Origin: Macrostomum hystrix
Lineage: Eukaryota > Animalia > Platyhelminthes
Length of the DNA stretch: 64,000 bases
Direction of reading: 5' to 3'
NCBI GenBank assembly: GCA_950097015.1
Contig: CATNEN010000025.1
Location: 248,001 to 312,000, forward strand
Shown here piece by piece: positions 39,517 to 61,800 of the stretch. Below the pieces are notes generated by a model. The model had not been told where the DNA came from. It saw nothing but the letters and a program-made list of their open reading frames with translations, and did no database searches. Position 1 is the stretch's first letter. Each line of letters begins with the position of its first letter. A program made the translations under genes and the position numbers.

Positions 39517-41100
39517 AGAAAGACTCAAGAGAGAGAAGTAGGAAGTATTGCTGTATACTTGAGATCATTGGTAACGCTCTTCGGAAAGCCTATAATCAGA
39601 AATACATACATGCGATAAATTAATCGGCCAGAATAACTAAATACGCTACCTTAGACTAACTAAAGATGATATTCAAGGATAACTAAATACGCTACCAAGA
39701 AATTCTTTTAAGCATATAGAATACATTCTCAGAAATTAATTCTAAGAAACATTAACAGTAAAAAATACAACATTGTGAGAGTAAAAGTTAGAATAATAAT
39801 TAGCGCTAGAACAACTTTGGTGGTATTCAGTAGAATATTAAAATATTATAAAATAACCCTAGGACAGAATAATTTAAGCTACTTGCAGTAGCTTAATATA
39901 ACTTGCAGTTTTTACAAATAGTTTTAATGTCAGAGAGGGCCTCCAACATATTACATTTACAACCTGTAAAACGTAACAATGGATTATTTACGACAGCAAT
40001 GAGCAAGAAATTTGTTATTAAAGGAGTTGGCTTCGTTGCTTTAGTTAAAACTTTTAATAATAATACGTTGTAAATCTTGCTAATGTGTCTTGCATAAGGC
40101 GAATGTATTCATTGAATGATAAGTCACGCGGCGCAGTGGTTCAGTGCGCGAATCCCTTTCGAATTTGTAATTTTAACAAAAGCAAATCTACCAAATATAT
40201 ATATTATATTTTCTTACAAATAAAGCATAAAATTTATTTTATTAACGTTACGTTAGATCTTTCTTAAAGAATGTTACAATACTTTCCGAATTTTCAGATT
40301 TTTGCCCAGCTTTTTTCGACTCATTATTCGGTCTTTTCGGAGAGCCATTTGGGCCTCATTGGAACGCAAACAGCAATTTTCGTATAGCGCTTATATTTCA
40401 GTGCGCAGCAGTTCAGTTCTGCTCCATTTAGCTAACTATTTAGATTGATTTATTCGGAAGTCAGATTAAGACAAAAAATGAACATAAAGGCCTTCCTAAA
40501 ATCATTTTCATCTTCTCTCGTTTATAACAACGTAAACAGTGTATTTAAACGATCACGCGTATTTAAATTCACGCGCTAGCTCTGCAGCTATTTTTAGAAC
40601 TGGGAAGACCACGCTTCCTATATGGCTTTGCTCGCAAGCACTCTTTTTCTCTCGTTATTGATATTGCATTAGAGCAGCAGCAGTGTACAGTATACTGAAT
40701 GTATTGTTTCGTTCGAGATCAATTGACTGACTGATTGACACTGATTAAGACAGACTCTGTCTTATGGCATTCATTCATTTGATTTAACTTTGACTGGCGG
40801 CGGCAGCGACGACAAGCAAAAAACACGGAAAGGCAATTCGAATATTTTCTAAGCTAAAGGCTACTCGATTATATTTCGCAGAGGCTAACTAATGCTATCC
40901 AGCTGTACAATTGAATTTTTATCTCACCTCGAAGTGCGCACAGGCGGACGGGGCTGGCTACTGCTGCTTCTGATGCTTCTGCTGCGGCCCGGGGCTGGCT
41001 ACTGCTGCATGCTTCTGCTGCTACTGCTGCTTCTGCTGCGGCCGGTACAGCTGCACTGAGCTGAGGATGAGCATGGAAAAAAACAATTAGAATATAATTT

Positions 41101-41123
41101 CACATGTGCGCGCTTTATACGCT
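41101..41123. other. Half recombination-like site: spacer CACATGTG + arm CGCGCTTTATACGCT
   Basis: Same arm as the 47370-47407 site; inverted-repeat homology stops exactly at this spacer. Confidence 0.6.
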
Positions 41124-43175
41124 GCAGTAACACAGTCTAATGAATTCAATCAGCCCTCCCTCCAAGGCCTGTGCAAGTTTTCTCTGCGTGTTTTCTCTCT
41201 GTCCCGGCCCCCTTTATCTGCCCCACGGTGTTTTTGACTCACTATTTAAATATTTAAATATATTAAATACTATAAATATTGTATATATAAAATCTTAAAT
41301 GTAGCAGGCAGACAGACAGGCGGGCAGGCAGGGCGAATCACTCAAATTTAATGTTCCGACACTGAGGGCAGCCGCCGTCTCTTCCGTGCCACCGGTCTAC
41401 CGTGCAGGACTGCGTCGGCTCGTTGGGTGCTCGCCGCCACCTCACCACTTCCACCAGCCAGGCTGCTGATGAGTCCCTGGGTCGGCGGCCTAACTATGGG
41501 TCGCATCTCTTCGGCACCTGATGGCACCACAAACCGGCGGACAATGTCGCGGCTGCGAATCACCGCGCCCATCTCCGTGGCCATCTGCGCGTTGTGACCA
41601 TAGTTAAACCGGATGACAGCTGCAGATGTGCCGTGCGCTCTGGCAAACACATCTAGCTGCTCCGGCTCCATCATGAGCACTACGGCACAGAGGGTGCGAC
41701 GCCAGTGCGTGGCCACATAGTGCCGACCCAGTACTCGCTGCCCGCCTGCGCTGATCATGCGGCTCATTGCCGACTGGCTGTACACGCCGCCGAACACATC
41801 TATGAAGACCGTCGGCGACTCCGGTTGCTCGATGCCGCGAGCAGCAAGCGACGGCAAGATGTATTCGTCGTGCAGGCGCAGCAAGGCCTCGCAGAATAGA
41901 TCCGGCAGTACCATCCTGGCTGGATCGCCGGAGTGTCCGACCTTGTGCGGCACTTCACGCAGCGGCAGGACGAGGTGCGAGTGCCCAGCCAGATCGGCAG
42001 CGGACAGCGCGCTCTCCCAATCTGCACTTTGCGTGTGTTGGCGGAAAAGCTGTTTTTGGTCGGCCGACGCGTTTCGCAGAACCGAACTGTCGACCAGGTG
42101 TCGCCGTCTTAAGTATATCCACGGCAGAAGTCGCAGTGGCTGCTCGACGCTGCAGTAGAAAAGCATCTCCTGCACTATCCGCCGCAGACATACCATCCGG
42201 CGACTGAAGGCGCCATCATCTGCTTCGCCGTTGTCTTTGGTGTCATCAGCGATGCCATTAGCGACCACACCTGCTGCCTGCATGCCCCATTCGCCGTCGA
42301 CTGGCAGTGAAGACCAGCTGTGTCTTTGGAGCATGATGAAAAAGCGGTCTCGACGGGCGAACACGGCATCAACCTCGTCCACGTTGACGTAGGTGTCCAT
42401 GAAGGCCACCTGCCGCTCATTGTGGCCAAGCTTGTAGACGGCTTGTATAGTATAAATGTGGTTGCGTTTACTTCTAGTAGATAGCAGCACGAAACCAAAT
42501 AGAACTAACTGTCATTAATGCAGCTGCTGTGCAGCTAGCTCACCTGCTGGATGGCGCGGACGTTGCCGAACTCGCCGCGAGCCTGCTGCACCACGCTGCT
42601 AAGGCGGGCGATGAGAGCCTGCTCAGCCGCCAGCGGGTTGTTGGCCTTCTGCGCCAACTGCAGTCTCCAGCAGACTCCACTGCAGACAAGGTCGCCGTCC
42701 TCAATATCAGCAGTAGCAGTAGCAGCAGCATCTGCGCGGGCGGCGTCAGCCGAGGGGGAGTCGATGCTGCAGAACAGCTCGGCCTCGCGCAAGCCAATGG
42801 CGGCCATGATGGCATTGGCGCCTCGCAGGCCCCTTACGCGCAGCCAGCCCTCCATGCAGCGACAGATGCTGACCAACTCCTGGCACTTTCGCGCCGCTGT
42901 CGACTGAGCCAGCTGCATGGCGTCACTGACTGTTTCGGCGCTGAAGCAGTCCTGCACCCTGTCCGGCTGCAGCAGCAGGTCTGCAAGCGAGATGCCCGCT
43001 CGCTGCCAGGTTCGCAGAAGCGTCGCGCTCACCGACTTACTTATGTCGCGCCAACGCTGCTGGTGGCACAAGTTGGCCGCAATCCTGGCCCGCGATGGGT
43101 CCCTCCACCACAGCTCCCGCAGGCGTTCCACCGTCGCGGAGATGCTGGGCCGGTCACCCAACGGCTGCAGCAGCT
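41101..43175. repeat. Left arm of ~2-kb inverted repeat (partner 45623-47392)
   Basis: Reverse-complement near-identity with 45623-47392; identical translated ORFs on opposite strands. Confidence 0.95.
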
Positions 43176-44083
43176 TCTGATCGGCTGTCGACGCTTCCTG
43201 CTGCAGTTCTGCTCCGAAGATGGACAATCGAAGCCGGTCGAATTCGGCATTAGCCAGCCTTCTCTTTGCAGCAGTCCACTTTGCTGCAGCTGCTCGACGC
43301 TGCCTCGGCGGGGTAGCTGCCAGCTTCACTAGCGGCCTCTGTGCAGCTGACAGCACAGCCGATGACGTGCTGGGACGACAAAGTGCTGCCTTGGTGGCCT
43401 GCACCGCCAACTGCAGACAGGCAGCCGAATAGGAAGACTCTGCTGCCACCGTCTGGACCGTCGGCAGCGTCCGCATTCTGATGCTGGTTCCGGGCAGCAG
43501 CTCCTGCAAGCCGACATCGTAGTCTCCATCCTCGTCATCGTCAGCGACTACGGGGGCCTCCTGTGAGGACATCAGCAGCAGCGGCGCAGTCGGGTCAAAT
43601 AGGCGTCGCCGGACGGCTGGACGGCTGGCTGACGACAGCCGAGCACTGGCCGCTGACTGTCGACCGTCAACGGACGGCGCGGCGATGCTGTAGAGCTCGG
43701 CCAACAGAGACCCACCCTCGTATTCAGCTGGTTCTGCCTCTGAAGGCAGCTGCGGAGGCGGTGGTGGCATCTGCTGGACAACTGTGCTGCCTTGCTGTCC
43801 TACGCAGCACCTTGCCGCAGGCTGGGCACGCGTGTACATGCTTAGTTTTTGCTGAGCTGCGCGTGTGGGTGCTGCACGTCAGGCAGAGCCAGACCATCTG
43901 GGCACGCTGCTTGGCTGACGCCGCTGCCCAAGATGCCTCGGACGGCCGCACCTTGACTGGTGCATCCTCGAGTCGGAATTGGCGCACAGCCTCCTCCGCG
44001 TGCCTCCTCAGGAAGTGGCGTTTCGGGTGCGTCTGCGGTCTGCCGTCGCCACAGAAGATGCAGCACGACTCGTTGTCTGTCAT
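41348..44083 (-). CDS. Zinc-finger / tyrosine recombinase fusion gene, one intron (donor 42543), probable frameshift near 43760
   Basis: N-terminal CIFC..H..H, CLTC..H..C, CPAC..HxC fingers; helical middle; catalytic exon with EQPLR, HKVG, VFID, ATHWRR, RAHGTS, FNY in YR R-K-(H)xxR-H-Y order. Confidence 0.7.
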
Positions 44084-44353
44084 AGCTATTGTTATTACAA
44101 ATTGATGCAGTGCCATATAGGTGTATGAACTGAATTCAGTATGCATGCTCAATCAACACATGCTATATACAGTCCGTTGTGCGTGCACAATGCCTAAATA
44201 AATATATGTATATGCCCCTATATCCCATTATGGAATACACTATTTTAAGTGTTGTGCGAGCACATTGTCCCGTACTGTTGTCATCGCTGCTGCATTTATA
44301 TTCGATTGAGTGCTGCGTTGAGCACATAAATAACTTATTTTTCTGTTGTCCCT

Positions 44354-44400
<47 letters not shown>

Positions 44401-44401
44401 C
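44354..44401. repeat. (AAC)16 microsatellite
   Basis: Direct reading. Confidence 0.95.
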
Positions 44402-45183
44402 CCGGCTGTAAAAAATTATAAGCCTCTGAATCATTGATAAATTTTAAAAACATAATTTTTCATTTGCAATGTAGTACAATCAGCGTGTGTGCCAATCCGT
44501 GCCCTGCACTATATACCACAGATTCTATATTATATAGGTAATATAGAATCTGTGCTATATACTACATTTGTTTACGCTTTAGCAAACCCCTCGAAAAGCT
44601 CAGACATTCGATTTTCCAGTGAACAGCACACCCACCCCCTCCAACTCGATCTTCCTCCCTCAAAAGCAGTGCCGAGCCAGCATCAGACCTGCAGATGGAA
44701 AGTGAGACGACTTCGATCGTCTTTAGTCTATGGTCACAGGGGTGAAATTATCGATTGGTTGAAGCAGACACACTGCTTCTCTTTTTCAAGGCAGAGCAGT
44801 GGCCCTTCCACACCCTTTTACCATAGACTATGAATTTAGAGACAGGGCCGCCCCTTCGATTTCGAAGGTTTAAAGAAAGGGTGGCAAGCCAAGTAGCAGT
44901 CTTTTAGTTTTAGCCCGGCCCAACTGCTCGATCGAACTGCAGCTTACAGTCAAATATAATTCAGAGATTCATCCACAATTCGAATCAACAGTCAGCCTTC
45001 TATTTGCTTGGACTATATTAAAACAGGCTACAGATATAATATCGACAGAGAGCCACAGGATCTATTATTATGTCAACAGCGAGCATTACGATCTAATATA
45101 TTTCTACGCAGCTCAGAACTGCATTACACTTACAGAGATTACAAATATATTATTATTATAGAGAACTGCATATTATATATACA

Positions 45184-45300
45184 AAGACTAATTAAAGGGC
45201 CTAATATATATAAAGACTAATTAAAGGGCCTATTATATATACAAATACTAATTGCAGGGCCTATTATATATACTAAGACTAATTAAAGGGCCTATTATAT
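45184..45300. repeat. About four copies of a ~30-bp AT-rich unit (AAGACTAATTAAAGGGCCTATTATATAT)
   Basis: Direct reading. Confidence 0.8.
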
Positions 45301-45622
45301 TAACCCAGCTTGTAATGCATATTTATGAGCAGAGACTTACACGGCCTATTTTAAATACAGAGCCTTTTTCTTATTTGCAGCGCATCTTCACTCTCCAGCA
45401 GCAGCATAAGCAGCACCAGCAGTAGCATCAGAAGCAGCAGTAGCAGCAGAAGCAGCAGTATCCAGCCCCGGGCCGCAGCAGAAGCAGCAGAAGCAGCAGC
45501 CAGCAGAAGCAGCAGCTGTAGCAGCATCAGTAGCAGCTCGACAGCCCCCGTCCGCCTGTGCCCACTTCGAGGTGAGATAAAAATTCAATTGTACAGCTGG
45601 ATAGCGAAGCCCGTGCCACTAG

Positions 45623-47145
45623 AGCTGCTGCAGCCGTTGGGTGACCGGCCCAGCATCTCCGCAACGGTGGAACGCCTGCGGGAGCTGTGGTGGAGGGACC
45701 CATCGCGGGCCAGGATTGCGGCCAACTTGTGCCACCAGCAGCGTTGGCGCGACATAAGTAAGTCGGTGGGCGCGACGCTTCTGCGAACCTGGCAGCGAGC
45801 GGGCATCTCGCTTGCAGACCTGCTGCTGCAGCCGGACAGGGTGCAGGACTGCTTCAGCGCCGAAACAGTCAGTGACGCCATGCAGCTGGCTCAGTCGACA
45901 GCGGCGCGAAAGTGTCAGGAGTTGGTCAGCATCTGTCGCTGCATGGAGGGCTGGCTGCGCGTAAGGGGCCTGCGAGGCGCCAATGCCATCATGGCCGCCA
46001 TTGGCTTGCGCGAGGCCGAGCTGTTCTGCAGCATCGACTCCCCCTCGGCTGACGCCGCCCGCGCAGATGCTGCTGCTACTGCTACTGCTGATATTGAGGA
46101 CGGCGACCTTGTCTGCAGTGGAGTCTGCTGGAGACTGCAGTTGGCGCAGAAGGCCAACAACCCGCTGGCGGCTGAGCAGGCTCTCATCGCCCGCCTTAGC
46201 AGCGTGGTGCAGCAGGCTCGCGGCGAGTTCGGCAACGTCCGCGCCATCCAGCAGGTGAGCTAGCTGCACAGCAGCTGCATTAATGACAGTTAGTTCTATT
46301 TGGTTTCGTGCTGCTATCTACTAGAAGTAAACGCAACCACATTTATACTATGCAAGCCGTCTACAAGCTTGGCCACAATGAGCGGCAGGTGGCCTTCATG
46401 GACACCTACGTCAACGTGGACGAGGTTGATGCCGTGTTCGCCCGTTTTCCGCCAACACACGCAAAGTGCAGATTGGGAGAGCGCGCTGTCCGCTGCCGAT
46501 CTGGCTGGGCACTCGCACCTCGTCCTGCCGCTGCGTGAAGTGCCGCACAAGGTCGGACACTCCGGCGATCCAGCCAGGATGGTACTGCCGGATCTATTCT
46601 GCGAGGCCTTGCTGCGCCTGCACGACGAATACATCTTGCCGTCGCTTGCTGCTCGCGGCATCGAGCAACCGGAGTCGCCGACGGTCTTCATAGATGTGTT
46701 CGGCGGCGTGTACAGCCAGTCGGCAATGAGCCGCATGATCAGCGCAGGCGGGCAGCGAGTACTGGGTCGGCACTATGTGGCCACGCACTGGCGTCGCACC
46801 CTCTGTGCCGTAGTGCTCATGATGGAGCCGGAGCAGCTAGATGTGTTTGCCAGAGCGCACGGCACATCTGCAGCTGTCATTAGGTTCAACTATGGTCACA
46901 ACGCGCAGATGGCCACGGAGATGGGCGCGGTGATTCGCAGCCGCGACATTATCCGCCGGTTTGTGGTGCCATCAGGTGCCGAAGAGATGCGACCCATAGT
47001 TAGGCCGCCGACCCAGGGCCTCATCAGCAGCCTGGCTGGTGGAAGTGGTGAGGTGGCGGCGAGCACCCAACGAGCCGACGCAGTCCTGCACGGTAGACCG
47101 GTGGCACGGAAGAGACGGCGGCTGCCCTCAGTGTCGGAACATTAA
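45623..47145 (+). pseudogene. Partial inverted copy of the YR gene lacking the zinc fingers and first catalytic Arg
   Basis: Starts mid-gene; 305-bp deletion is frameshifting and removes EQPLR. Confidence 0.85.
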
Positions 47146-47392
47146 ATTTGAGTGATTCGCCCTGCCTGCCCGCCTGTCTGTCTGCCTGCTACATTTAAGA
47201 TTTTATATATACAATATTTATAGTATTTAATATATTTAAATATTTAAATAGTGAGTCAAAAACACCGTGGGGCAGATAAAGGGGGCCGGGACAGAGAGAA
47301 AACACGCAGAGAAAACTTGCACAGGCCTTGGAGGGAGGGCTGATTGAATTCATTAGACTGTGTTACTGCAGCGTATAAAGCGCGCACATATG
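45623..47392. repeat. Right arm of the inverted repeat, with a 305-bp deletion at 46445
   Basis: Equals reverse complement of 41101-43175 minus 42048-42352; a few SNPs. Confidence 0.95.
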
Positions 47393-47407
47393 CGCGCTTT
47401 ATACGCT
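47370..47407. other. Palindromic recombination-like site, 15-bp arms, 8-bp spacer CACATATG
   Basis: AGCGTATAAAGCGCG-CACATATG-CGCGCTTTATACGCT. Confidence 0.7.
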
Positions 47408-47609
47408 AATGTTTTTATAATTGATTATATGCTATAGTTAAGGATATTTATTGTATTTGATTGATTACTCTCGTTGATAATAGTATACTTTATTGTTTTT
47501 GTTGATAGAATTATTTAATTAGCCATAGATTTATCTGACATTTATTAAACAAATGCTGCTAACTGCTCTACTTATAGTAGTCAAGCAAGCAATTTAATTT
47601 TAGATTTAG

Positions 47610-47725
47610 GTACAGTTCATAGTGCGCGCACAATACTTAAAAAATATAAGGATTGTTGTTCTAAAATTAGAGCAGACATGCCTTATATATATTTTTAGGG
47701 AATGTGCGCGCACTACAGACTGTAC
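47610..47725. repeat. 116-bp hairpin module (GTACAGTTCATAGTGCGCGCACA ... TGTGCGCGCACTACAGACTGTAC)
   Basis: 23-bp inverted arms with 3 mismatches; near copy at 52903-53038; TA|CAGT ends compatible with a Tc1-type MITE. Confidence 0.8.
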
Positions 47726-48571
47726 ACGTTGAATTTCTTAGAATTTAGCGCGAATTTGAAATTTTAGTTTCTTATAAAATTTATAAATAACTGAGTAGCA
47801 CTATATGCAGCTGTTAATTGCCGTTATAAGCTCGTATTATATATTATATGTATAGCTTTTTGCGTCCATCCAAATTGTATTTTAATGCACACATTACTAC
47901 ATGTATTTTAATTGCTTGTTGTTGCAGATGCCACTTGTTGATTCTCATCTTAAATTAGTTATTTGCCGCTTTTTCATATCCATACGTACCGTCTACATGT
48001 AGTTCTTGATCGAATGCTTATTCTTGATTTATGACTATATTTATTCACATATATGCATGCAGTCAGCTCTTCAATTCATATATACAAGTATACTTACTCT
48101 CGTTGCTACAGCTGAATTATTATAAATTATAATAACACAATTAGCGCCCAAATAAGCACATAACAACTGCGTGTGTGTGAAATTATTTTTAGACTACTAT
48201 TAATAAAGGAATGCGATAAACTCAAGACATAGACAAAGGTTAGGCACATAGAAACTAAAGGAAGGACTGTGCTGCCGTGGCTCATCTTGAGCACACAAGT
48301 CAAAGAGAGCTAGCTCGCGCTGATTGATTTCTCTATGCCAATCGATTAAGACAGACTCGATCGTTCCCAAGCTACTTTGATTTTCAATCCCAACTCTATT
48401 AATCAACCAAATCAACTCCTTCGTGATCTACTGTTTCGTTTCGACTGCCCCCTACACTGTTCCGATTACTCCGCTCCAGCTGCGACCCCAACGACGACGA
48501 CTGCATTTAAAGTGATTTTTATCTGCGCTCCACAAGGTAGGCAATCATTGTTAATTATTCTAGCTGCCCAT

Positions 48572-51500
48572 CTATCTAACTTGTTGGAGAGCAGCAACAG
48601 CAACAACAACAACTATTTGTTGGCGGTGAGGGATTAAAAAGTTTAATGGAGCCGGTACAGAAAAAGAAAAAGCCACGGAGTGGCGCGCGGTGTCCAGGCC
48701 GTCAAACATGAAGTCATTACCGCCGAAGCGCTTAATGACCGGGCAGAATACGCGCTCCTGGCCCAAGTGGCGCTCGACGGCGGTGGTCTTGCCGACTCCC
48801 GACGGCCCATACAGATAGACAACGCCCGACTGGTGGCGAAGGGCTGTGCAGACAGCCTCTCGGAGCGGGCACGAGTTCCGGTTGTCGGCAGCCTCGGTGG
48901 AGCATGCGGAACAGCCGGCGAGCTGCTCCCTGCGAATCCGGCGCTGGCGCTGCACATCTCTGAAAACCCCCAGCAACGTGGCGCGCATCTGCTGGTGGGC
49001 CAACAAGACGCCGTCAGTCTGGTCGGGCAGGTTGGCAGTCAGCGGGTAGGACAGCGCCCACCGAGTCGCTTGCACCAGCATGCTGCACTGCGTGGCGCCG
49101 ATCCCGATCAGCAGCGGGTAGCCGTCGTGCTGCGTCAGGCTCCGCAGCACACTGTCTGGCGAACGGACGCCGCACAGCGTCAGGGTGGTCCGGTCGGGCA
49201 CCACAAAGCAGCGTCCCTCGTCTCGGCTAGGCAGCAGGCTGAACAGCAGCTCGTATAGATGCCAGCCGGCCGCGTTGGTCTCCAGGCGCACGAAGCCGGA
49301 CAGAGTGCGGTGTGGCCGATACTCGCTATGCTGCTGCTGTTGGTGTTGCTCCATCTCGTCGACGGAGAGCGGGTCAGCGACTAGCCGCCGGTCGCAGAAT
49401 TCATCCATGCCGACGCAGAGGCCCGGGCTGGACGCCAGGACGAGCTCGACACAGTGTGCCTCCAGAGCCTCGCCCAGATATACCTTGGCACGACCCGTTT
49501 ATGTAGGCAGCATGGAAACAGTGGATGCCAGCTGGTTATACGAGGGTCACTCAGAAAGTCTTTAGCCTGAACAAGAAAACAGCAACATATGAAATAAAAA
49601 ACCATTACAACTGCTCGAAGTACTCTCCCCCCGCATTGATACAGGCTTGTATCCTGTGGAACCAGCTGTCGAAGCACTGCCGCCAATCCTCATCCCGGAG
49701 CTCCCCGATGACGTCTTTGAACTCATTCACAGCTTCTTCCGGCGAATAAAAAATCTGGCCCTTTAATATCTCCTTGCACTTCAGGAATAAAAAAAAGTCG
49801 CACGGTGCCAGGTCTGGACTGTATACGCAGGGTGAGTCATCAGCTGGACACCACAGTCGGCCAGAAACTCGAGAGTTTGAGCTGCCGTGTGCGCACTGGC
49901 ATTGTCGTGGTGCAGAAGCACCCCACGCATTCCACACCTTGGGCGCCTCTGGCTCACAGCAGAAAAAACTTTGGGCAGGCAAACCGTTGTGTACCAGTCA
50001 GCGGTGACTGTCAGGCGATCTTCCAGTGAAACGGAAGCCACATGTCCAGTGCGCATGAAGAAGCAGGCCACCATCTGCTTGCCGGCACTCCGGTTGCGTC
50101 GAAACTTGGTTGGGCTGTCCTCGTCTCTGAAGGTCCACATGGATGACTGGCGCTTGTTTTCGGGGTCGTATTGATAAATCCAGGTCTCATCTCCCGTGAG
50201 GATGTCCCAGATACGCCGGCTGGTCCCAGATTCGAATTTCTGCAGCATAAATCGGCACCAAGCCACCCGGGTGTCCCTCTGCTCGTCCGACAGCTGATGG
50301 GGGATCCACCGGGAAGCCAGCTTCCGCACTCCGAGGTGTTCGTGCAGAATGGTGTGCACACTCCCCGATCCAATGCCCATCTCCTGCTGGATCTGCTGGT
50401 AGGTCACTCGCCGGTCAGCGTCAATCATGCTGGACACAGCGCAGATATTTTCTGGGGTCACTGCGTCGCAGGGTCTCCCGGATCGATGCTCATCTTCGAG
50501 GCTTTCTCGACCTCGGCGAAACTCAGCGAACCAGTTTTTGACGGTTGCGTATGAAGGACACAGATGAGCGAAAACGTCTTGTAAAGTTTGAAATGAATCG
50601 GCCGGCGACTTGCCTTGCTTGAAATGCAAGTACATCATAGCTCTGAAGTCACGATTTTCCAGCTTCATTGTGCAATTGAACGGCGCAAGGGGTGAACTGA
50701 CTTTGGCTCACTGCAGTGGACTCAAAAGTAACTGCTTCTGTTTGAAAATGTAGCTATAAGACTTTAAAAAGGTGGTCTTTACCATAGACAAATTTCATGC
50801 TTCTGCGTCTCGTGGATCATACTCAGGCTAAAGACTTTCTGAGTGACCCTCGTATGATTCAAAGCTTAAGAACAAAGCAAGTGACTCACCGACGAAGCGC
50901 ACGTTGTCGATGTGGAAGACGTGCAAATAGCGGCGCCCGGTCAGAATCCCGCTGTCCTCTGGCAGTCGCTCCGCAGGAGCAGCACCGGTCATTGCGAGCG
51001 GCCGGCTGCCGGAGCGCGTCACCGTGAACTGCTGCTGTGCTGCTGCCGCATTAAGCAGCGGGTTTTGGCCCAGCCGTCGCACGCCTCGGCCGCCTCGTTG
51101 TCCTCTGGCGCCGCCGACCGCGCTCCTGCTCGCCTCGCTGTCCCCCTGCTGTTGCTGCAGGAAGTGCATATACTGTGCCGCAGACGCCGGCGGACTGTAG
51201 CTGAATGCCATCAGCGAGGGAGGACGCTCGAGCTGCACCTGCTCTTGTTGCTGCAGCGGCTGCGGTGTCATTATGCGCCACCACTCCTGGCCGACAGGGA
51301 CGGACTGGCTGGCCTCATTCATAGCGGCCACCACCGCTGCTGCGAATGCCGCTGTGCCAGGCGACACCACGTAGGCCGTCGTCTCATCTTCCGGACGCTG
51401 AGACGGTGTGGTCTTGGCGACTGCAAGTCGTCGGCCATCGGGCTGCGAGTCTGGCACCATGGCGCCCACAATGGAGCAGTCGGCAGCAGCAGCAACAGCA

Positions 51501-52552
51501 GGAGCAGTCGTTTCGAGCCGCTGAAAACGGAACCTCCGCCTCCCTGGCTGCCGTTGTTGGTCGGCCGCGACTTGAGGCGGTTTCGGCACCGTGCTGGCGA
51601 CCTCCTCCATTTCCGCATCAGCGCCCGACGGTGGGGGATCTGCAGCGACTGACAGCGCAACGGTGGACGCCTCGTAGTCCAGCAGTGCCTGCAGAGCATC
51701 GCGGTCGTCGCTATTAATCGCCTCCTGCTCGTTAGGCTCCGATGGCTCCGCCTTTGGGCCGCTACTGCGAGTTGCCGCTGTCGGCCTGCTTTTATCGTGG
51801 CGCTCGTCGTCGACGTCCTCAATCTCGATGACGACGGGGCTGCGAGGCTGTAGAGCTGCCCTGGACCTGTCGGGCGCGTCAGACGCCGCACCGTCGCTGT
51901 CGTCACTGTTGCCAGCAGCCTGTCGCCCGACGTGCCTGATCACTGCCGGCGACGACCATCTGCTGGTGGCCTTCTTGGCACTCCGGTGCTGATCTCCGAG
52001 CCAAGCCAGCAGGCTCCCTTTTGGCGCAGTCGAGGCTGAGGCTGCCATCGCGTGGAAGATTGGTGCGTAGACGGTCGTGTTATTTGCCGATGTACTGGCA
52101 GGTGGTGGCTGCTGATTGCCTGCTGCCGCTGGCTGGGATACGACGCGGATGGACACAATCGACGCGTTCAGCAGGTCCACACTGCCTGATGCTGTGGACA
52201 TCTGGTCATTGGCAGGCTGCTGCTCTTCGGTGTTCAGGCGCATGACACCGCTCAGGGGCAGCAGGCTGAAGTCGTCAGCGTCACTGCTGATGTTAGCCAC
52301 CGCTGCTGTCTGCACTGGACGGCACCGCTTTGGGCCTGGCGTAGATTCTGCAGCTGCTGCTGCTGCCGCTGCATTGACAATGCGACGTTGAGAGGGAGCG
52401 CTCTTTCTTTTTCGCTGTGATGGTGGCTGGTGAGTTGATGACGCTACCGGCCCGGCGGAGTTGCTATCTTGGGCAGCTCTCTCAAACTCGTCCAGCGCGG
52501 CCGCAATTCGTTCATCGTCGCTGTCGCAGCCGGTTGAAAAATTGAACGACAT
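48572..52552 (-). pseudogene. Large spliced gene: low-complexity N-terminus + possible Rep-like domain + SF3-like P-loop ATPase, disrupted
   Basis: Exon 1 52552-50890 (GTGAGT donor), exon 2 from 49531; frameshift near 49485; VVYLYGPSGVGKTT followed by FMFDGLD as in Rep SF3 helicases; Walker B not found (truncated near 48660). Confidence 0.55.
49541..50852 (-). mobile_element. mariner (DD34D) transposon, 1312 bp, inserted in a 44-nt intron
   Basis: 30-bp perfect TIR CGAGGGTCACTCAGAAAGTCTTTAGCCTGA, TA TSD; transposase 50668-49605 with TGDETW, HHDNAS, YSPDLAPCDF and one 2-bp frameshift near 49825. Confidence 0.95.
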
Positions 52553-52770
52553 TCTGTGCTTCCGCGGGTTAATTATAGGCGCGTTCAAATTTGGATGTAT
52601 GAAAATGAGCAGGCTGCAGAAAGCCAACGCAGTCCCAGGTTCTCAACTTCAACTGGGTGCAACATGGTGGGATTCCCTATTAATAGAGTCCCAAGTACAT
52701 CCCAAGGAGAAGGAGCAGGCTATTTAGGATGAGCAGCAGATAGTACCACTGTTACTAATTCTTCTAGTAG

Positions 52771-52804
52771 ATCAATATGCGCGCACATGTGCGCGCATAT
52801 TGAT
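52771..52804. other. Perfect 34-bp palindrome with 13-8-13 layout
   Basis: ATCAATATGCGCG-CACATGTG-CGCGCATATTGAT. Confidence 0.75.
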
Positions 52805-52902
52805 TTTATAGCTTTAAACTGATAGATTCAGATTCTATTAATAGGTGCTTAATTAGGTTAATTCGGATCCCGGTTAAGTTGATAGTGTACTTTTAGCGAG
52901 AA

Positions 52903-53038
52903 GTACAGTTCATAGTGCGCGCACATTACTTAAAAATATATAAGGACTTGCCTGCTATTCTTAGGTAGATAAGCAGCTCGAATCGAATCGTCTTATATAT
53001 ATATTTCTTAGGGATTGTGCGCGCACCACGAACTGTAC
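52903..53038. repeat. Second hairpin module
   Basis: Left arm identical to 47610-47632; right arm TGTGCGCGCACCACGAACTGTAC. Confidence 0.8.
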
Positions 53039-53201
53039 TCTGCTGTCTATTTTTAGGTTATCCAAAATAAACTTCCCGGTATCGAGTTGGATCTGCCAAC
53101 TTAGTTGATACTAAACCATTCTTTTATTGGTGCAGAGTTGGTTTGGGTTCACAAACAGGGATAAGTTATTTAAACTGTCTAGCTAAGTCTTTTTGCTGCT
53201 G

Positions 53202-53620
53202 CTACTGCTCCATTCGATATTGGCGACTCCGGAGCAACTCTCGCAGTCTTGCCCTTTGCTGCACGCCGCGCCAGTAGTCCAGCCCGTGTAGAATGTGCTG
53301 CAGCTCCAAACAGGTGTCCTCCACCAGGCCTAGCAGCTGGCCAAGTCGAAAGCCTCGTTCTCTGTTAGGCAGGTCACCTCCAGGATGGTCTCGTAGCCCG
53401 CAGCTGTCTGGTGTTGTAGCAGCCAGTCCAGGAGGCTCTTCAGCAGGGTGTGTAGCTGGGTGGCATTCAGCTCAGCATTCGGGCAGTGGCGCTGCAGGCA
53501 GGTCAGCTGCTCCAGTCGTCCTCGGTGCGCCAGGAACGGGGCCAGGCAGGCGATGTCGCATCTGGCCAGGAGTGCCACGATGGCCGGCGAGCCGAACAGC
53601 GCCACAGGATGAGCATTCAT
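53202..53620 (-). pseudogene. ~138-aa GC-rich gene with one frameshift near 53340; possibly death-fold-like
   Basis: MNAHPV..LAPFL..LLDWLLQHQTAAGYETILEV..AFDL / GQLLGLVEDTCLELQ..LDYWRGVQQRARLRELLRS; codon usage like neighbouring YR and helicase genes. Confidence 0.45.
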
Positions 53621-54002
53621 CGTGGTTCTACGCACCCAACAATGTCGTGAGTGCAGCAGCAACGCGTCTAACACTAGCTAATACCGCTATAGTCACTATA
53701 TATCCCACAGTATATTGGAAAAATTTCGATCGATCATCACAGTGCGAAATGGGTCCCTAATTCAGGTGCGGGCAGTGGCATGGGGCTGCAGTCATCATGT
53801 AACGTAAGATAATACCCTGTATGAAACTCATTTCATAGAATGTTCGAACTGCATTCCGCTGCTGTCACAACTGCGCCATTTGAAACAAAATTATCATGAC
53901 TGGTATATATTTAAGTATTCAATCAGCCAACCGATCTCGCACCTAACACTGCAACAATTGCTATCAGTAGTAATCAATTTAGAATTATAGCAAAGCGGGT
54001 CG

Positions 54003-54505
54003 CGGGCTCTTTTGCTGCATAAGAAAGCATTAAGGGTTGAGTCGGGCTCTTTTGCTGCATAAGAAAGCATTAAGGGTTGAGTCGGGCTCTTTTGCTGCAT
54101 AAGAAAGCATTAAGGGTTGAGTCGGGCTCTTTTGCTGCATAAGAAAACATTAAGGGTTGAGTCGGGCTCTTTTGCTGCATAAGAAAGCATTAAGGGTTGA
54201 GTCGGGCTCTTTTGCTGCATAAGAAAACATTAAGGGTTGAGTCGGGCTCTTTTGCTGCATAAGAAAACATTAAGGGTTGAGTCGGGCTCTTTTGCTGCAT
54301 AAGAAAGCATTAAGGGTTGAGTCGGGCTCTTTTGCTGCATAAGAAAGCATTAAGGGTTGAGTCGGGCTCTTTTGCTGCATAAGAAAGCATTAAGGGTTGA
54401 GTCGGGCTCTTTTGCTGCATAAGAAAGCATTAAGGGTTGAGTCGGGCTCTTTTGCTGCATAAGAAAACATTAAGGGTTGAGTCGGGCTCTTTTGCTGCAT
54501 AAGAA
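54003..54505. repeat. 40-bp tandem repeat, ~12.6 copies
   Basis: Unit TAAGGGTTGAGTCGGGCTCTTTTGCTGCATAAGAAAGCAT with one G/A variant site. Confidence 0.97.
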
Positions 54506-56362
54506 TCGCTACATAAAAAACCATAGACTACACAGTCGGGCTGAATTGCCGCTATTGCAATTTCAATAGAGAGAGTGAGTGCGAGCGAGGAAAATATGTT
54601 TTACAGTAACTGTCAAATAGAGGTTAATTTGATAGAGTTTTGGTAAACCCGTAAATATACTCAATTAAGATAAATCACACATGTTCTGGACTGTTTTGTG
54701 CCGAAAGTAGCAAAAATAACGCAATAAATTCATAAATTTACAAAATTATGAATAATCTGTAGCTTAACGTTTGTCAATCAATTCACTAGTTGCCTATAGA
54801 TTTTGTTGTTCAAAGATTTGACTGATTTGTCTTGTGCTTGCTGGGATACTGTGGAATTGTGGAAGTCCCTGTGGAAGTCCCTGTGGAATTGCCGACTAGT
54901 CGGCTGCGCTGATCTGCAATATGGTTATTTTGAAATTATGCTCCTTATATGGTCTTTGATGAAAAGATTAGAAATTGAAAATATCGTCGTTTCGGCGCCC
55001 GCAGCCGTCCTGCAATTCTTATTTTATAGCTATACGTACCGTGTACATAAAGCTTCGAGTCTTCATTAACGAAAAACCAAGCTGGCACACTTCCAGAGAG
55101 TAAAAACCTATCAGCTATCAGCTCATTTCAAAGTACTCAATGACTTTCGAAGTATGGAAATCGTAAACATCTCAGGCAAAATAGGGTGCATGGTGCAGTG
55201 AATGCTTAAAAGGCATACGCATTTTTGTTGATCCTCATCGCCGATTGTAAAGTAAAAATGTTGCGTTATGAGTATATTAGTATAGTACGAGTACTATCTA
55301 AAGAATGAACACAGTGAATCACCAGAGAGAAGAATATGAATGCACAAGAGTTCTGCAATATAAAAGGTGCAGTAGTCTGGAAAGTCTGTCACATTTATCC
55401 TCTTGTAATTGGGATCGTATTGAAGCAAGATATCGCCAGTGTTATGCGCGTTACTTGTTTCTAACTTACTAATTTGGTATCGATCTTTACTTTTTCTCGT
55501 TACCACGGGCTGGTAATAAATATGACGGCAACAAGTCGTTACTAACAGTGTGCATTTCCCGTTACCTGTTTTCGTTACTAGTTTCCGAAAAAATAATTTG
55601 ACTTTAGCAGCACTGTAAATAAATTATTTTGCTGCATTAAACAACTTTTTAAACTGTCCATTTTTTTCTTTTAGACTGAAAGGCGGGGTGGAGTACTCAC
55701 TAAACAAGAAGCATCGCTGCAGGGATATCGATGACCAGCTCATGGATCAATACAATGAAAACGATGGTGACTTGCGCGTGACTGTAACCTGTTTGTATTT
55801 ATTTACCTGACTGTAACGAATAGAGACCGCAGAGCAGAGGCAAGCTGATCACTTAGCGAGCAGCAACTAGCGCTGACCATATGCGTATGACCGCGAACGA
55901 GTTGCGGTCTACAAAAGCTGGTTACCACAAGAATAAGATGAGTTTTCTTCTAGTCAAATGGTCGCACAAGCATATCGAGAGCGAACTCTCGACCTCCCGT
56001 CGCTCATTCAATCTTCAAAATTGCGAGCTTTCCGCTTGTGCCGAGGCTCAAGTGTGACTTTGACAAGGAGCTTCAGTCTGGATTGATATCCGTTAGCCTG
56101 CGACCAGCTTCTCTGGCAAAGTGGACTTCAGTCGCTTGGCTGAGCAAAAGCAACGCAGGCGTTCGCATCGGCAGCGGTGCTTAATTCGGTTCCCCGATGT
56201 GCATCGATTCCAATGCTGAGTTCTCTGGACAATCCATGCACCGAACTTGGGCATTGCCGGCATCGATTAGCTGTAACAACTGTTTGGCGTGTCACAAAAC
56301 ATCTTGCGTAACGGCTGGTGGTACGCGCGTCCAATGCCCTAGCAGCGACTGTTCGACCGTGA

Positions 56363-57592
56363 TCAGTAGTAGGGGTTAGCAGTTAGCAGCCCCCACATTG
56401 TTTTCCTTGTTGAAAACAACCCTTTGTTCACTGTAGAGATAAGAGAAATGGCGGGCCTATCTCTTTGCGCTGCGTACGGCTGCAGTGGAGTGGAGAGGCC
56501 GATGGAGGGTGGGTGAGGTGTGAGGTGGGAGTTGGAGATAAGGGCCCCAGTCCTGGCAGACTGGCTGCTTTTCAGGTAGTGCAAGTACTCTCGCACAAAT
56601 GAGTTGTTTTCGGGTGTGAATGCACCGTGGCACATGGTTTCCCCGCCTTTCTTTAGAGCTAGCTGGCTGAGGTTGAAGCTCTGGAACTCGAAGGGGCAGG
56701 TGTGATGATTCCCGTTGAAGGCTCGGTGGCTCACGAAAGCCAGCATGATGAACTTAGGGAGTTTTCCGTGGGTAAAGCCTTCAATGTTCTTCGACTGGAT
56801 TCTCTGGGGCAGAATAAAGTTCTGCATTTCGGCTCGCTCCATAGGATAGAGCGCATTCTGGTTGGTCAGTCCCTGATCATGGGCTAGGCTGATGTGAGAA
56901 GCCACCTTGACTCGGCGGAGATGCAGGATGCAGTGGGAGATTTCCATGCGGTAGGCTGTGTTGTTTGTGACCGGGGTTCTGATGGCAAATGCAGCGTCGC
57001 TGGGCACCAACTTGATGTGCAGGTGCAGGTTGTTCAGCAGGAACATGGGGCACTGGAAGATGTCGCTGAACAACGGTCCGACATACTCCACCCAGCGGGA
57101 CAGCCTGTGGCTCTCCATGTGCGCCTCTGCAGCGGAGTCAGGTTGCAGGAATCCAGCGGGGTAGAACTTCAGCTGCTGGGCGTCTGAGGAGCTCATGAGA
57201 GCTTTGAAATAGGCATGGTAGGGATAGAGCTGGTCTCCCCCGGACACAACTCGCTGGTTAATGCTCACAATGACATCAGAGAAGAGCGTAGACAGGACGA
57301 AGTTTTCAGGGTGCACATCACTGTCTCGGCGCTCTGTCAGCTCTCCTTCAGCGTTCAGAACATTCTCCCTCAGCAAGCCCCCATCCAGTCGGACTAGGCG
57401 GCAGCGAATGTACAGGAAAGAATTCAATAGTTCGGTGTATTCGTCAGCTGATGGGTGGCAATCGAATTCGATGGGTGCATTTGCAGCAATTGAGTTCACG
57501 GGGTGAATATCGACATAGGAGGATTTGTCAATGGCAGTCTGCAGCGCAGGAGCCTTGAACAAATCGAGCCTTGGGTTGAATCCATAAGCCAT
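56363..57592 (-). pseudogene. Polinton major capsid protein (PY/hexon-like), C-terminally truncated and reading into the terminus
   Basis: LDLF..LQTAI..YVDIHP..PIEF..EY..L..VHPENFVLSTLFSDV..YPYHAY..GPLFSDIF..GKLPKFIMLAFVSHRAFNG..PFEFQ pattern. Confidence 0.88.
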
Positions 57593-57656
57593 GTCTACGA
57601 CAAAGAGTCCAGCACGCGCTTCACCGTTTTCCTGCTGACTTTTCGCTTCCTCTTGC

Positions 57657-57983
57657 TTACCGTTTTGCCCTTTGCTTTGCTCTCTCCTTTCTTAGGTTTC
57701 TTTCTACCTGCATTGTTCCGTTTCCTTGATTTTTTCCCCTTCTTGCCATTTTGGCGAGAGGTGTCTTCTTTATTATCTTTTTCCTAGAAACTTTAGCATT
57801 CAACTGTCTTCTTTTGCTAACGCTTTTGCCAGCCGAGGCCAACTGAGATGCATGTGCTGGTGAAGTTGCTGGAGGAGGTTGATATGTCATGATCCCTGGA
57901 AAACTTCCGCACCCATAGGGCGCAGATTTATCGCTTCCATTTCGAGTTCCAGAGTACTGCCGGATCATCTGTTGATAGTTCAT
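57657..57983 (-). CDS. Small basic protein upstream of MCP (Polinton core/PM-like)
   Basis: MNYQQMIRQYSG..GCGSFPG..YQ then K/R-rich tail; syntenic position. Confidence 0.45.
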   Translation of the reverse strand: MNYQQMIRQYSGTRNGSDKSAPYGCGSFPGIMTYQPPPATSPAHASQLASAGKSVSKRRQLNAKVSRKKIIKKTPLAKMARRGKNQGNGTMQVERNLRKERAKQRAKR

Positions 57984-58041
57984 CGAATAAGTTTCTCCCG
58001 GATCTGAATCGTGAGCAAAACAGGACTGCAGCTCTGAGCAG

Positions 58042-58375
58042 TCAGAGGGGACCAAATGTATCCCGCAGTTGAATTCGAATGCTGTGTAGAAAATTTGCTT
58101 TCTGGATTGGGAAGAAAAGTGTTTTCTTAAACACTTTGCTGAAGTAGCAGCCCCATTCAGCATTAGAACTGATGTTCACAGTTCGCAGCAGGGAGTCCCA
58201 GTTGCAGCTTGTTGACTCAACAAGGCTGCAGCGCACATTGACCAGGTTGGTGGGCGGACAGCCGATGCAACAGCTTGACACTTGGCACCCAGGTGGGATT
58301 TTGATTGACTGGTTTCCAAATCCCAACCACTGCGAGCCCCGAGGCGGCACGAAATTGGTACCAGACCGGATCGCG
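58042..58375 (-). pseudogene. Polinton minor capsid protein (penton) C-terminal part
   Basis: WLGF..VNVRCSLVE..SLLRTVNI..FFPIQK..IRIQLRDTFGP motif; flanked by stops. Confidence 0.65.
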
Positions 58376-58447
58376 GCTTAATTCACTGTCCTGCAATGGT
58401 ATGCGCCCAGATGGCGACGACGAAGCCACACTGATTTCCTTGTCGGA

Positions 58448-58855
58448 CTAGGCGATGAGTAGCGTCTTCCGGTCCTCCTCCTCCTCACACGTTCCTTCAA
58501 CAGAAGCCAGCTCAGCCTTGACATCGATGCCCACCTCACGTATGACGTCTTGAGTGCCCAGCTCATATTCACCTTCTGGTGATTTTCCTTGTAGCTCCGA
58601 GTCAATCCAGCTCGCTTTTTTCCATAGCTCATTCCATAGACGGGGTGACAGGGCCACGGAATTGCGCCTTAGGTATTCTTCCGTACAATCTTCGGGAAGA
58701 CGCTTGAGCCAGATGGTTCCTCGGCTAAACATCGCGATCTTCTCAAAACCCAGCTTGATCGTGACGTTGTGTCGGTTGACCGCGGAGTGCACAAGTTGTT
58801 GCTTCACTTGCTTTAGCTTTTCCCATTGATACGCGTTGAGGTTGAATCCGGGCAC
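58448..58855 (-). CDS. 135-aa protein with two PC4/KELP-like ssDNA-binding motifs
   Basis: GFNLNAYQWEKLKQ and VALSPRLWNELWKKASWIDSEL resemble the PC4 GISLxxxQWxxL motif. Confidence 0.5.
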   Translation of the reverse strand: MPGFNLNAYQWEKLKQVKQQLVHSAVNRHNVTIKLGFEKIAMFSRGTIWLKRLPEDCTEEYLRRNSVALSPRLWNELWKKASWIDSELQGKSPEGEYELGTQDVIREVGIDVKAELASVEGTCEEEEDRKTLLIA

Positions 58856-61800
58856 GCCTGGCTTCAGTTCTCATTCACTAGAAAAGAAGCGCCGAATCGC
58901 TATAAAATGATGACCTTATAATCTTGCACTTGCACTTTAAAGCCGTCGCAGAGATCCATGCTCAACAATCTGATACAGAAACAAAGGGTTGTTTTCAACA
59001 AGGAAAACAATGTGGGGGCTTCGCCCCCACACCCCCAGCAACTCATAGTCACTGCATGTGTGCATGCAGGCGCACTCTCCGCAGCGCGATTGGTTATCTT
59101 CCACCATTTTCTGCTTTCCCGCTTGCCACAGCCACAACCATATCACCATAGAATCATAAAATCTCTTACCTGGCTCGGCCTGCGCTCCACTGCAGGTGGG
59201 GCACAACTCTCTTACCAGGGCCTGATTGGCTCAGCCATCCCAGCAGCATAGACCCAACCCCTACTATCAATTTGCATTGTCGCTTATCTCCTCAGTACAA
59301 GTGCGGCAGAGTTGCATAAAGTCATACTACAGCTCTATCTCTTCAGACTCAAGATTCAGAACTATACTCACAAAATATCAATGTTTTCCGGATATACACA
59401 TTTTATATATTATATATTATATATATTATATTATATTTTAAATCAATATATGAGCTAGATAGTATATGCAGACATATAGATACATACCGTTTACCTTGAC
59501 TGCTCACCAATTCCAAACTACATTGCATGCCATGGAATTTCCACGGAATTTCCTGCTAACCCCTACTACTGTGATCGACTCAGCTGCGTACTCTAGTCCT
59601 CAGCTGCTGCTTCAAGCGTGCTTCGCAAATGACAGCGCGATTCACCAGTTTCTCAGTTCTGTCCGCGATTCTATCTCGCAGTGGAAGCCTTCACATTTTA
59701 GTTATAGAATGTTATTAGGAAGTTAGGAAGTTATAGACTTCCTAGAATTGCTAGAAAATTGCTATAATTTAACACCATGTTATTGCAAAACAAGGCTTGA
59801 TCAAAGCATTAATTTTTTCATTCTTTTAATTTTGTATTTTATAATATGTAATTTTGAGAATATCGTTTTGCAATGATATTCTCGATACTGAATTACGAAA
59901 AGGCATATTGAGAAAATATTGCGTGTACAATCGAGCATTGGTTATGCTAAGGCTCTTTCGTATTATTTCAAGCGGAAGCGAAAGATTAGATAAGATTACA
60001 CTCACGTTTCACTAGCGACTCGCTATAAACCCACTTTTTTTAACTCGTTCGCCACAAATGAAAAACTACTTTTCTTCTATATCTTGATGTATCTCTTATT
60101 CGCCACTAATTGTTTCAAGCAGCGATGTTACTTATAGCTTGGTCTGGTCGTTTAAAATAAACTTCGGCTTATAACGGGTTTATGAGCGGTTTATAAGCCC
60201 CTACGATAATTTATACGAAAGCTTTCGCCGTTTTAAAATTCGAATAGCCTCTATTGGACTTAATATTAATATTAATATATGACTTAATATTTGACGTAAC
60301 TACGGCCGGAAAAAGGAAATTAAAAAATTCTATGTAACTAACTTCATGATGTAAAGAAAAATTAAAGATTTATAGGCCTACGGCATCATGACCATTCTAA
60401 TCTTACTTTACTAGTAGTCTAGTTTTTTTGTAGCTACAGACCAATACTTGGTCGTATTAGTCTGTGTCTATCTATTAAAACTTAGTATTTTGAAATAGCC
60501 TAGGGTACTATGTATATTGCTTGCTTTTGAATAAAAAGTAAACCAGGAATACATGGGAATTGGGGATCTCCATTATAGCTGAGCTGTATTGCTAAGCTAA
60601 TAATAGCTAGCTGCTAGGGTTTATTTTTAGCTGGCCCCTAACTAGGCATATTCTTATGCAAGCATGTCTAGTTTACTTAATAAATTCCAATGAGAAAAGC
60701 CAAAATGACAATATTGGCTATTTATCTAGTTTGTAGGCCTGAATACAAAGCATAGGGTAATGTATCATCTACCGAACAGTGTATCTTCAAAACCGAACAA
60801 GAATTTTGACTCCTTCCTTGGTCTCGTGCAAGACAGAAACAAGCTATTGACCTATTGTGTTTCACAGAACAACTAATTTGAAAGTTGAAGAAATTATCTA
60901 CAAGCTGAGGCATAATGTGCAATGAAGCATTAAGAGGAAAGAAAGATATAGATATTTCAGTAGAATTTTTTATTGCAGAAGCATACTTTTTAACAACATT
61001 TTTTCAGTATGTACTTTAGACGAAGATTGTATGTGGTTGCTTGCTAATTAAATGACCATAAATGTAGTTATTTATAGAACATGAAAAATGCTTTCAAATG
61101 ACATAAATTATGATAGTTCACTCCTTAAAATAAGATTAAAACACTCACTCAAATTATAAAACCAAACATCAAATTCTCTGTTTGGTTTGAAGATACATGA
61201 AAATCATTGTTCGGTTTTAGATAAAAAGCAGGAATAACTTTTTTCTATTTGACAAAATAGCAAAAGCAGATACTTTTTAGAAAGATGTAACTGTTTTCTA
61301 TAACTTGGCTTTTGATTTATCATCATATCTTAAATAGAAAATCTGTAGCTTAAGTTTGAAGTTAAAAAAATACACATTCTTGTTTGGTTGATGATACATT
61401 ACCCTATAGTACTTATCATATTGATTCTTAAGCCCTTTTCTCTGACTGTGTATATTCTCTGACTTAGGCCTAACACAAGTGCCAAAGCTGCCAACAGTGC
61501 TCTCATGCTTTTCCTCCACAACACTTAGGGTTAGGCCTAGCACCAATCTCTAGGCCTAATACCAACTCATTCTCTCATCAAAAGCACAGAAGGGTCTACA
61601 CTAACATGTACCATATCCTTAAATACTGACCCCAACATCAATGTTATGCTCATACTATTTTGATTATTGCAAAAAGAGTTGGTAGGCCTAGTACCTAATC
61701 AAGTTTCCACAAACAGTAGGCCTATCAAACTGAAATAGGCTTTAAGTAGGCTCGGCTTCATGTTTTAACAAAGATATGAAAACATGTTGCATGAAACAAG

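Follow-up and report, generated by a model that had tools for sequence, protein, structure and literature searches.

Palindromic sites beside a predicted tyrosine recombinase gene in Macrostomum hystrix: candidate core sites of a low-copy mobile element

Introduction

In known eukaryotic DNA transposons that depend on a tyrosine recombinase (YR), the ends of the element are hard to define. A stretch of 64,000 nucleotides from the flatworm Macrostomum hystrix (assembly GCA_950097015.1, contig CATNEN010000025.1, positions 248,001 to 312,000 of the forward strand; the whole stretch is called the window, and its own numbering is used throughout) carries two long palindromes, P1 and P2, in the neighbourhood of a gene for a predicted YR whose family has no Pfam match, and presents a sharp candidate site of 38 bp. 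The question raised by this locus is whether the palindromes are places at which the recombinase cuts and joins DNA, the closed ends of a linear molecule, the stems of a replication origin, or chance neighbours of the gene. Because the candidate site is sharply defined, crossover and hairpin chemistry could be told apart directly on a short oligonucleotide. The answer proposed here, held tentatively and a little short of even confidence, is that the palindromes are YR core sites of the attP type, belonging to an undescribed, low-copy and modular DNA element. The link between the sites and the YR gene is well supported.

Palindromes and their core motif

P1 (47370-47407) and P2 (52769-52806), neither of which is assigned to a strand, are built on the same plan. 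P1 is 38 bp long, with 15-bp arms around an 8-bp centre (15-8-15) that contains one mismatch, and is the candidate intact crossover core. P2 is a perfect palindrome of 34 bp over 52771-52804 in the window, as an earlier reading made from the letters alone (the sequence-only reading) had pointed out, and attains 38 bp (15-8-15) in other samples. Part of the stretch is contained in 20 sequencing runs, all as contigs, of which the best four (X1 to X4, from one study) were compared; a C at position 52805 in X1 (major variant), X2 and X4 extends the symmetry of P2 to 52769-52806, that is, to the length of P1. The same reading was right in giving P1 different outer arms and the same inner bases: the inner 5 bp and the centre are common to both sites, and 6 of the 15 arm positions differ. 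At all six variable positions the change is mirrored in the opposite arm, and therefore P1 and P2 have each been kept symmetric on their own. The spacers of P2 and of a half site described below are perfect palindromes; since the half-site spacer is fully symmetric, the one-base asymmetry of the P1 spacer counts as one of the 10 substitutions that separate two copies of the YR gene. Purines and pyrimidines alternate over 18 bp in one core and over 26 bp in the other, the latter being that of P2.

P1 and P2 are real and beyond chance. In the whole window only three palindromes have arms of at least 13 bp and a spacer of no more than 8, and local order-3 Markov simulations that preserve composition produced 0 of this kind in 30 out of 30 trials. 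The third palindrome (44517-44554; 38 bp, 16-6-16, no strand) is unrelated in sequence to P1 and P2, and its membership is uncertain. It lies 242 bp upstream of a diverged repeat pair (pair c, below) and shares its polarity, has an 8-bp direct repeat on either side, and may represent a third unit or else a very small foldback insertion. The core motif GCGCGCACA occurs eight times in the window, always within the palindromic sites or the repeat pairs linked to them. An 18-nt core was also met in 11 viral contigs, matches that were judged to be chance, as none has extended arms or related proteins. An Rfam scan of 38-60 kb gave 0 matches.

Symmetry of this degree brings in the main rival explanation, namely that the palindromes are resolution sites similar to telRL, or copied hairpin ends, at which the YR cuts the DNA and reseals it as closed hairpins, so that the element or each module replicates in linear form. 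This is possible, if somewhat unlikely. The continuation of the symmetry through the centre of the sites, their length of 38 bp in most samples covering them, the mirrored changes at six of six variable positions and the alternation of purines and pyrimidines all argue for it, as does the position of the third 38-bp palindrome ahead of a third repeat pair. The fold of the enzyme and the form of the half site bear on the matter as well.

The adjoining recombinase gene

The gene product is a predicted YR tipped with zinc fingers and of an unclassified family. The longer copy of the gene (copy A, 41348-44083, minus strand), which ends at the half site, consists of three overlapping or adjacent frames on that strand: a zinc-finger frame (43724-44152), a frame for a linker and core-binding part (42535-43878) and a catalytic frame (41348-42511). 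HMMER comparison with 1.84 billion representatives returned eight matches, two of them proteins of Macrostomum lignano and the other six unnamed fragments from metagenomes or assemblies, and none of the eight is identified as viral. A 1084-aa M. lignano member matches both the catalytic frame (E 2e-26) and the upstream frame with its two zinc fingers (E 1e-4), while another homolog spans the middle and catalytic frames; because homologs bridge the frames in this way, the three appear to make up a single spliced gene. Before the zone of indels, 20 of 28 listed differences between the YR gene and the X1 variant are synonymous (25% expected; p 3e-7), the 28 being taken from 40 differences listed out of about 500, and by this count the gene is under purifying selection. 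Several M. lignano entries (UniRef100_A0A1I8GN39 and the related P0004, P0005 and P0009-P0013) are mostly named 'Ras-GEF domain-containing', yet they align with the YR family, and the name is probably wrong.

Sequence searches place the enzyme in no named family. The catalytic frame has no sequence match in Pfam, PHROGs, NCBIfam or PDB, and Pfam recognizes no YR-type family in any of the 8 alignment members. A word-indexed protein search found nothing for the YR, and a YR profile recovered only relatives already known. No usable related locus came from metagenome contigs searched with the window YR and its relative P0002, nor from viral contigs searched with the YR, the ATPase part of a neighbouring gene and the relative P0001. 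When proteins are compared by language-model features, a cluster of phaeovirus integrases like EsV-1-213 ranks first (score 0.95, 156 of 256 features in common) and a phage-integrase cluster second; a ResT/TelK cluster at rank 11 (0.93) is a point in favour of hairpin ends.

The predicted fold resembles that of integrases. A structure model was obtained from a 9-sequence alignment (pLDDT 62.8; a single-sequence model, with pLDDT 32, was not usable), and against solved chains its top seven rows are all YRs (Z 8.5-10.7). The best matches are XerH (Z 10.7, rmsd 3.6, 184 aligned) and XerA (Z 10.5), together with integrases and Cre (Z 8.6). Protelomerases stand lower, with TelK at Z 5.9 and TelA at Z 5.3, and this greater nearness to Xer and integrases speaks against closed hairpins. 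The top rows of Foldseek are again XerA, an integrase, XerH and Cre, and the top viral row is FirrV-1-B4 (E 5.8e-3). The R, K, xxRR, TS and Y positions, assigned by alignment and by the motif usual in YRs, are conserved in the homologs that span them.

Two gene copies and a break at the spacer edge

Copy B of the recombinase gene (45604-47145, plus strand) is truncated at its 5' end, has an internal deletion, is inverted relative to copy A and is followed by the intact P1. Over 948 nt (41101-42048), copy A matches the reverse complement of 46445-47392 at 99.4% identity; a second stretch, 42353-43175, agrees with 45623-46445 at 99.5%. The predicted gene stops about 225-245 bp before the palindromic site in both copies, which are arranged head to head, a layout that also fits hairpin telomeres.

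The homology between the two copies ends exactly at the outer edge of the 8-bp spacer. At this point copy A has the half site (41101-41123, minus strand), formed by one 15-bp arm of the P1 type and the whole 8-bp spacer, after which unrelated AT-rich DNA begins. The sequence-only reading had described this half site correctly, spacer, arm and AT-rich neighbour included; it is, however, no independent site, for 41101 is the end of the 948-nt inverted duplicate and thus duplicates the left side of P1, so that it is not a third member of the family. The stop of homology at the spacer edge, which upholds the likeness to an attL/attR junction that was claimed for the half site, is the strongest individual pointer to a site-directed event, though it is one event. 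For hairpin telomeres, the half site would have arisen from a hairpin end that was opened 4 nt beyond its tip and then joined to host DNA. Against this, known protelomerases make cuts 6 bp apart (PMC3558466), while the 4 nt kept past the centre are one over expectation, an excess that could be put down to a chance match (1 in 4).

At its left end, copy B has a 2-nt microhomology junction, and a plain join of this sort means that non-specific joins occur in the region as well. At 43175/45623 the copies, 99.5% identical downstream, diverge upstream, and contigs of X2 and X3 match the B-type sequence from 45604. As these contigs carry the B type, two N-terminal versions exist, and one of copies A and B is likely a chimera. 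Two related CAG-rich, exon-like stretches, inverted relative to each other, lie at 40894-41039 and 45425-45605, one adjoining each copy.

Palindromes and inverted duplications are common artefacts, and either the palindromes or the inverted YR copy might stem from assembly or fold-back. Such an origin is scarcely credible here: 10 substitutions, a gap of about 304 nt and their upstream sequence set copies A and B apart, and P2 is found with the same flanks in the independent runs X1, X2 and X4 (X3 has no cover at 52791-52816), one X2 contig spanning it.

Repeat pairs and the ATPase gene

Three pairs of imperfect inverted repeats accompany the sites; the sequence-only reading had overlooked both these and the ATPase gene described below. 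Pair a (47610-47725, plus strand), whose two arms of about 40 bp have a GTGCGCGCAC core, lies 202 bp after P1, and pair b (52903-53038, plus strand), with arms likewise of about 40 bp, 96 bp after P2, an AT-rich tract separating each palindrome from its pair. The diverged pair c (44167-44275, minus strand) lies about 85 bp ahead of the start codon of the recombinase gene and has the polarity of that gene. Because left arms and right arms each have a signature of their own, the pairs are polar, and all three are oriented alike along the chain formed by YR, P1, ATPase gene and P2. An arm profile run over the window gives scores of 22-49 to these six arms, from which it was built, and no more than 10 to any other site. 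A small inverted-repeat pair at 31796-31957, whose arms contain a short CACATTCCCTAAA-like stretch as in the right arm of pair a, was missed by this profile. The repeat-arm pattern gave no usable related locus in prokaryote genomes and viral contigs; the one prokaryote match (L012) was rejected, since it lies on the opposite strand of an ordinary bacterial gene, which we take to be fliM.

Between P1 and P2 lies a gene (48572-52627, minus strand) whose product has a long N-terminus of low complexity and includes a P-loop ATPase part with a Walker A motif. Two things interrupt the gene: a mariner insertion (49538-50855, minus strand, with 33-bp terminal repeats), foreign to the element, and either an in-frame stop or a tiny intron near 49500. 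In X1, X2 and X3 the mariner is absent at this site and the joined form is present. In X3, a short contig runs from sequence resembling 48722-48750 straight to 52398, which points to a derivative of the ATPase gene that has lost its interior (about 48730-52398). Scanned in pieces, the gene matched only in its Walker A stretch, with no Rep family in Pfam, PDB, phages, plasmids or the Atlas, and a word-indexed search with the ATPase part gave no match among longer proteins. The resemblance to Rep/SF3 helicases is assumed from motifs and was confirmed by no search. After pair b, a short frame (53339-53641, minus strand) of no known family could be a third cargo, or else a repeat in its own right. 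At 53121, X2 and one X1 contig depart from the window sequence at the same place and with the same other letters, and hence the sequence after pair b varies between copies.

Sites of this anatomy could also be origin stems, the palindromes and repeat pairs being bound by the Rep/SF3-like ATPase and the half site being an ordinary break at a fragile palindrome, without any action of the YR. The GCGCGCACA core is common to the palindromes and to pairs a and b, with four copies per unit and a tract of 68-77% AT between them; the ATPase gene sits between P1 and P2; and the microhomology at the left end of copy B shows that non-specific joining takes place here. Such an origin is nevertheless decidedly unlikely, given that the ATPase part has no Rep family match beyond its Walker A stretch and that the break falls exactly at the spacer edge beside a YR gene.

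A further view regards the palindromes and repeats as unrelated foldback or miniature inverted-repeat transposable element (MITE) remnants, or as host transcription-factor sites, that lie near the YR gene by chance. The richness of the window in transposons agrees with it, as do the 8-bp direct repeat of the palindrome at 44517-44554, which resembles a target duplication, and the TA-CAG...CTG-TA bounds of pairs a and b, presumably similar to mariner-type ends. The view is very unlikely all the same: the six arms are confined to 44167-53038, with no further arm in the other 55 kb of the window, and the stretch of P2 and pair b is covered by 20, 1, 5 and 4 contigs in the four runs, so few that the palindrome and repeat pair are not a high-copy MITE.

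P2 in other samples

The comparison of flanks in X1 to X4 is centred on P2 and pair b, P1 being covered only by a broader comparison. In X2 a further difference within P2 is seen at 52800 (one contig, depth 3.7). Of the 22 non-coding differences listed for X4, a single one lies in P2 or the arms of pair b, which make up 21% of the stretch (p 0.036), and this one extends the symmetry of P2; the distribution counts in favour of attP-type cores. An X4 contig first taken as P2 joined to a new left flank was rejected, because it simply stops at 52777, where the palindrome breaks the assembly graph. The depth of X4, 8.8 to the left and 28.9 to the right of P2, was not used, and neither were other differences in depth between modules, because contig depth is no copy number. 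As contigs lose rare forms and are interrupted at a palindrome of 38 bp, they cannot show hairpins. Hairpin telomeres have against them that no fold-back molecule was observed, in contigs made with k=31, which cannot reveal one at a palindrome.

Proposed mechanism and its weighing

If the palindromes are attP-type cores, P1 would be a captured intact circle junction, the half site at 41101 an attR-type right-end junction left by a cut at the edge of the spacer, and P2 a P1-type site or unit that was duplicated and has diverged. A YR dimer would sit on the two arms, and strands would be exchanged over the central 6-8 bp, the partner being a host site with hardly more than the core in common. 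The repeat pair would act as an accessory left-end binding site or as an origin, and the ATPase would replicate the excised circle. This reading is favoured because the YR gene adjoins the site, the break coincides with the edge of the spacer, the predicted fold is close to integrases and the attP of phaeoviruses has a similar anatomy. The idea of a family of YR crossover sites, put forward by the sequence-only reading, gains from the predicted YR gene adjoining both copies and from the confinement of the core to sites and repeat pairs; it finds no support in an exchange of arms between the sites.

Several observations weigh against attP-type cores. There is only one half site, and the window holds no matching attL. 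P1 and P2 are each self-symmetric and have different outer arms, so there is no sign of arm exchange between them, and the asymmetric hybrids expected of an exchange between P1 and P2 are found neither in the window nor at P2 in the four runs. Symmetry through the centre and mirrored arm changes would fit a process of pairing or copying better than a simple crossover. Alleles with alternative flanks, which had been looked for in other samples, did not appear: no other junction at P2 is present in any of the four runs, where X3 is partly uncovered and contigs drop rare forms, and none of the seven listed loose ends is at P2, with no joint listed. On the side of the protein, the structure model is modest (pLDDT 62.8, 9 sequences), and Foldseek gives it no match at E 0.001 or better. 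The canonical catalytic set of YRs is R, K, H-x-x-R, H/W and Y, and in this family both usual His positions are replaced. Finally, the shared GCGCGCACA core could be bound by the ATPase protein instead. What hairpin telomeres explain better than attP-type cores do is that the centre is symmetric, the arm changes are mirrored, the length is fixed and the copies lie head to head.

A bolder proposal, unlikely on present evidence, is that of a capsid-less, segmented, plasmid-like animal element. Each module (recombinase, ATPase, small cargo) would be headed by a 38-bp palindrome, an AT tract and a repeat pair, and the YR would cut the chromosomal chain at each palindrome into one-gene circles or hairpin-ended linear DNAs that replicate themselves. 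Separate release of the modules, if it occurs, would make this a segmented replicon for which the literature searched describes no counterpart.

Surrounding DNA

The window consists of transposon-rich DNA, with mariner, piggyBac-type, reverse-transcriptase and other frames. One unit (56365-59570) resembles a deleted Polinton, with terminal inverted repeats of the AGTAGT type, inner 41-bp repeats (56388-56428 and 58980-59020) and a 6-bp target duplication, and likely is one. Its long minus-strand frame (56363-57691) has no Pfam match and, by its motif, is taken here to resemble a Polinton/adintovirus capsid protein. Tandem arrays are found at 53963-54522 (40-bp units), 63000-63680 (25-bp) and 45168-45303 (about 31-bp).

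Comparison with known systems

Full-text searches, judged by title and the start of the abstract, and with Repbase, subscription journals and supplements outside their scope, returned no described element of this kind. Among the scanned frames of 41-58 kb there is no reverse transcriptase match, as would be the trait of DIRS and Ngaro elements; the interrupted ATPase gene, scanned in pieces, matched no Rep family of the kind that carries the HUH endonuclease in Replitrons and CRESS elements. Cryptons have no terminal inverted repeats, only direct repeats of 4-6 bp, and animal Cryptons match DUF3504 (PMC3212892). The present element resembles them as a eukaryotic DNA element of low copy number with a YR and without a reverse transcriptase, and differs in the absence of a DUF3504 or Pfam match for its YR, in its long palindromes and in the linked ATPase gene. 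Polinton-like viruses can have an end module of YR and helicase whose repeats are proposed to be both att site and origin (PMC11296320). The clustering of a YR, a helicase-like gene and inverted repeats is common to both, whereas no capsid, protease or primase gene is identified in the module; no capsid or packaging gene was identified between 41101 and 53700, and the capsid-like frame nearby belongs to the separately bounded unit.

Cre/loxP and the Flp/FRT system of the 2-micron plasmid offer a geometric parallel, with inverted arms of 13-15 bp around an 8-bp centre beside a YR. The loxP/FRT geometry claimed by the sequence-only reading holds as regards arms of about 13 bp or longer around such a centre. 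It does not extend to the spacers, which in loxP and FRT are asymmetric and give direction, and here are symmetric; moreover, P1 and P2 differ at 6 of 15 arm positions, and there are extra repeat pairs downstream. Protelomerases and their telRL sites (TelN of N15, TelK, TelA and the telRL of phaeoviruses) share a palindrome that is symmetric through its centre and an enzyme of YR type; they are set apart by the lower fold scores and by the break, which here is 4 nt past the centre instead of 3 nt. That phaeoviruses possess an internal site of telRL type (PMC13236599) lends some weight to hairpin telomeres.

The closest protein look-alike is the integrase of phaeoviruses (EsV-1, FirrV and the related endogenous viral elements). 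The phaeovirus attP consists of an inverted repeat around a core, together with a conserved inverted repeat at the left end (PMC13236599). Both features have their counterparts here, an inverted repeat around a short core and a left-end repeat, and the gene likewise adjoins the end of the element. Unlike the viruses, the element has no giant-virus gene set, the long frames of the window being transposon genes or unclassified. Further differences are a length of about 12 kb as seen, GC-cored arms and an 8-bp symmetric centre in place of a CC core; the N-terminal zinc fingers, found also in a Macrostomum protein; and an arrangement of two or three units in tandem. If the proposed attP-type reading is true, a zinc-finger YR lineage nearest to phaeovirus integrases joins animal mobile DNA and may provide a native eukaryotic pair of recombinase and site. 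The element appears to work like one that integrates by means of a YR, and it fits none of the named families with certainty.

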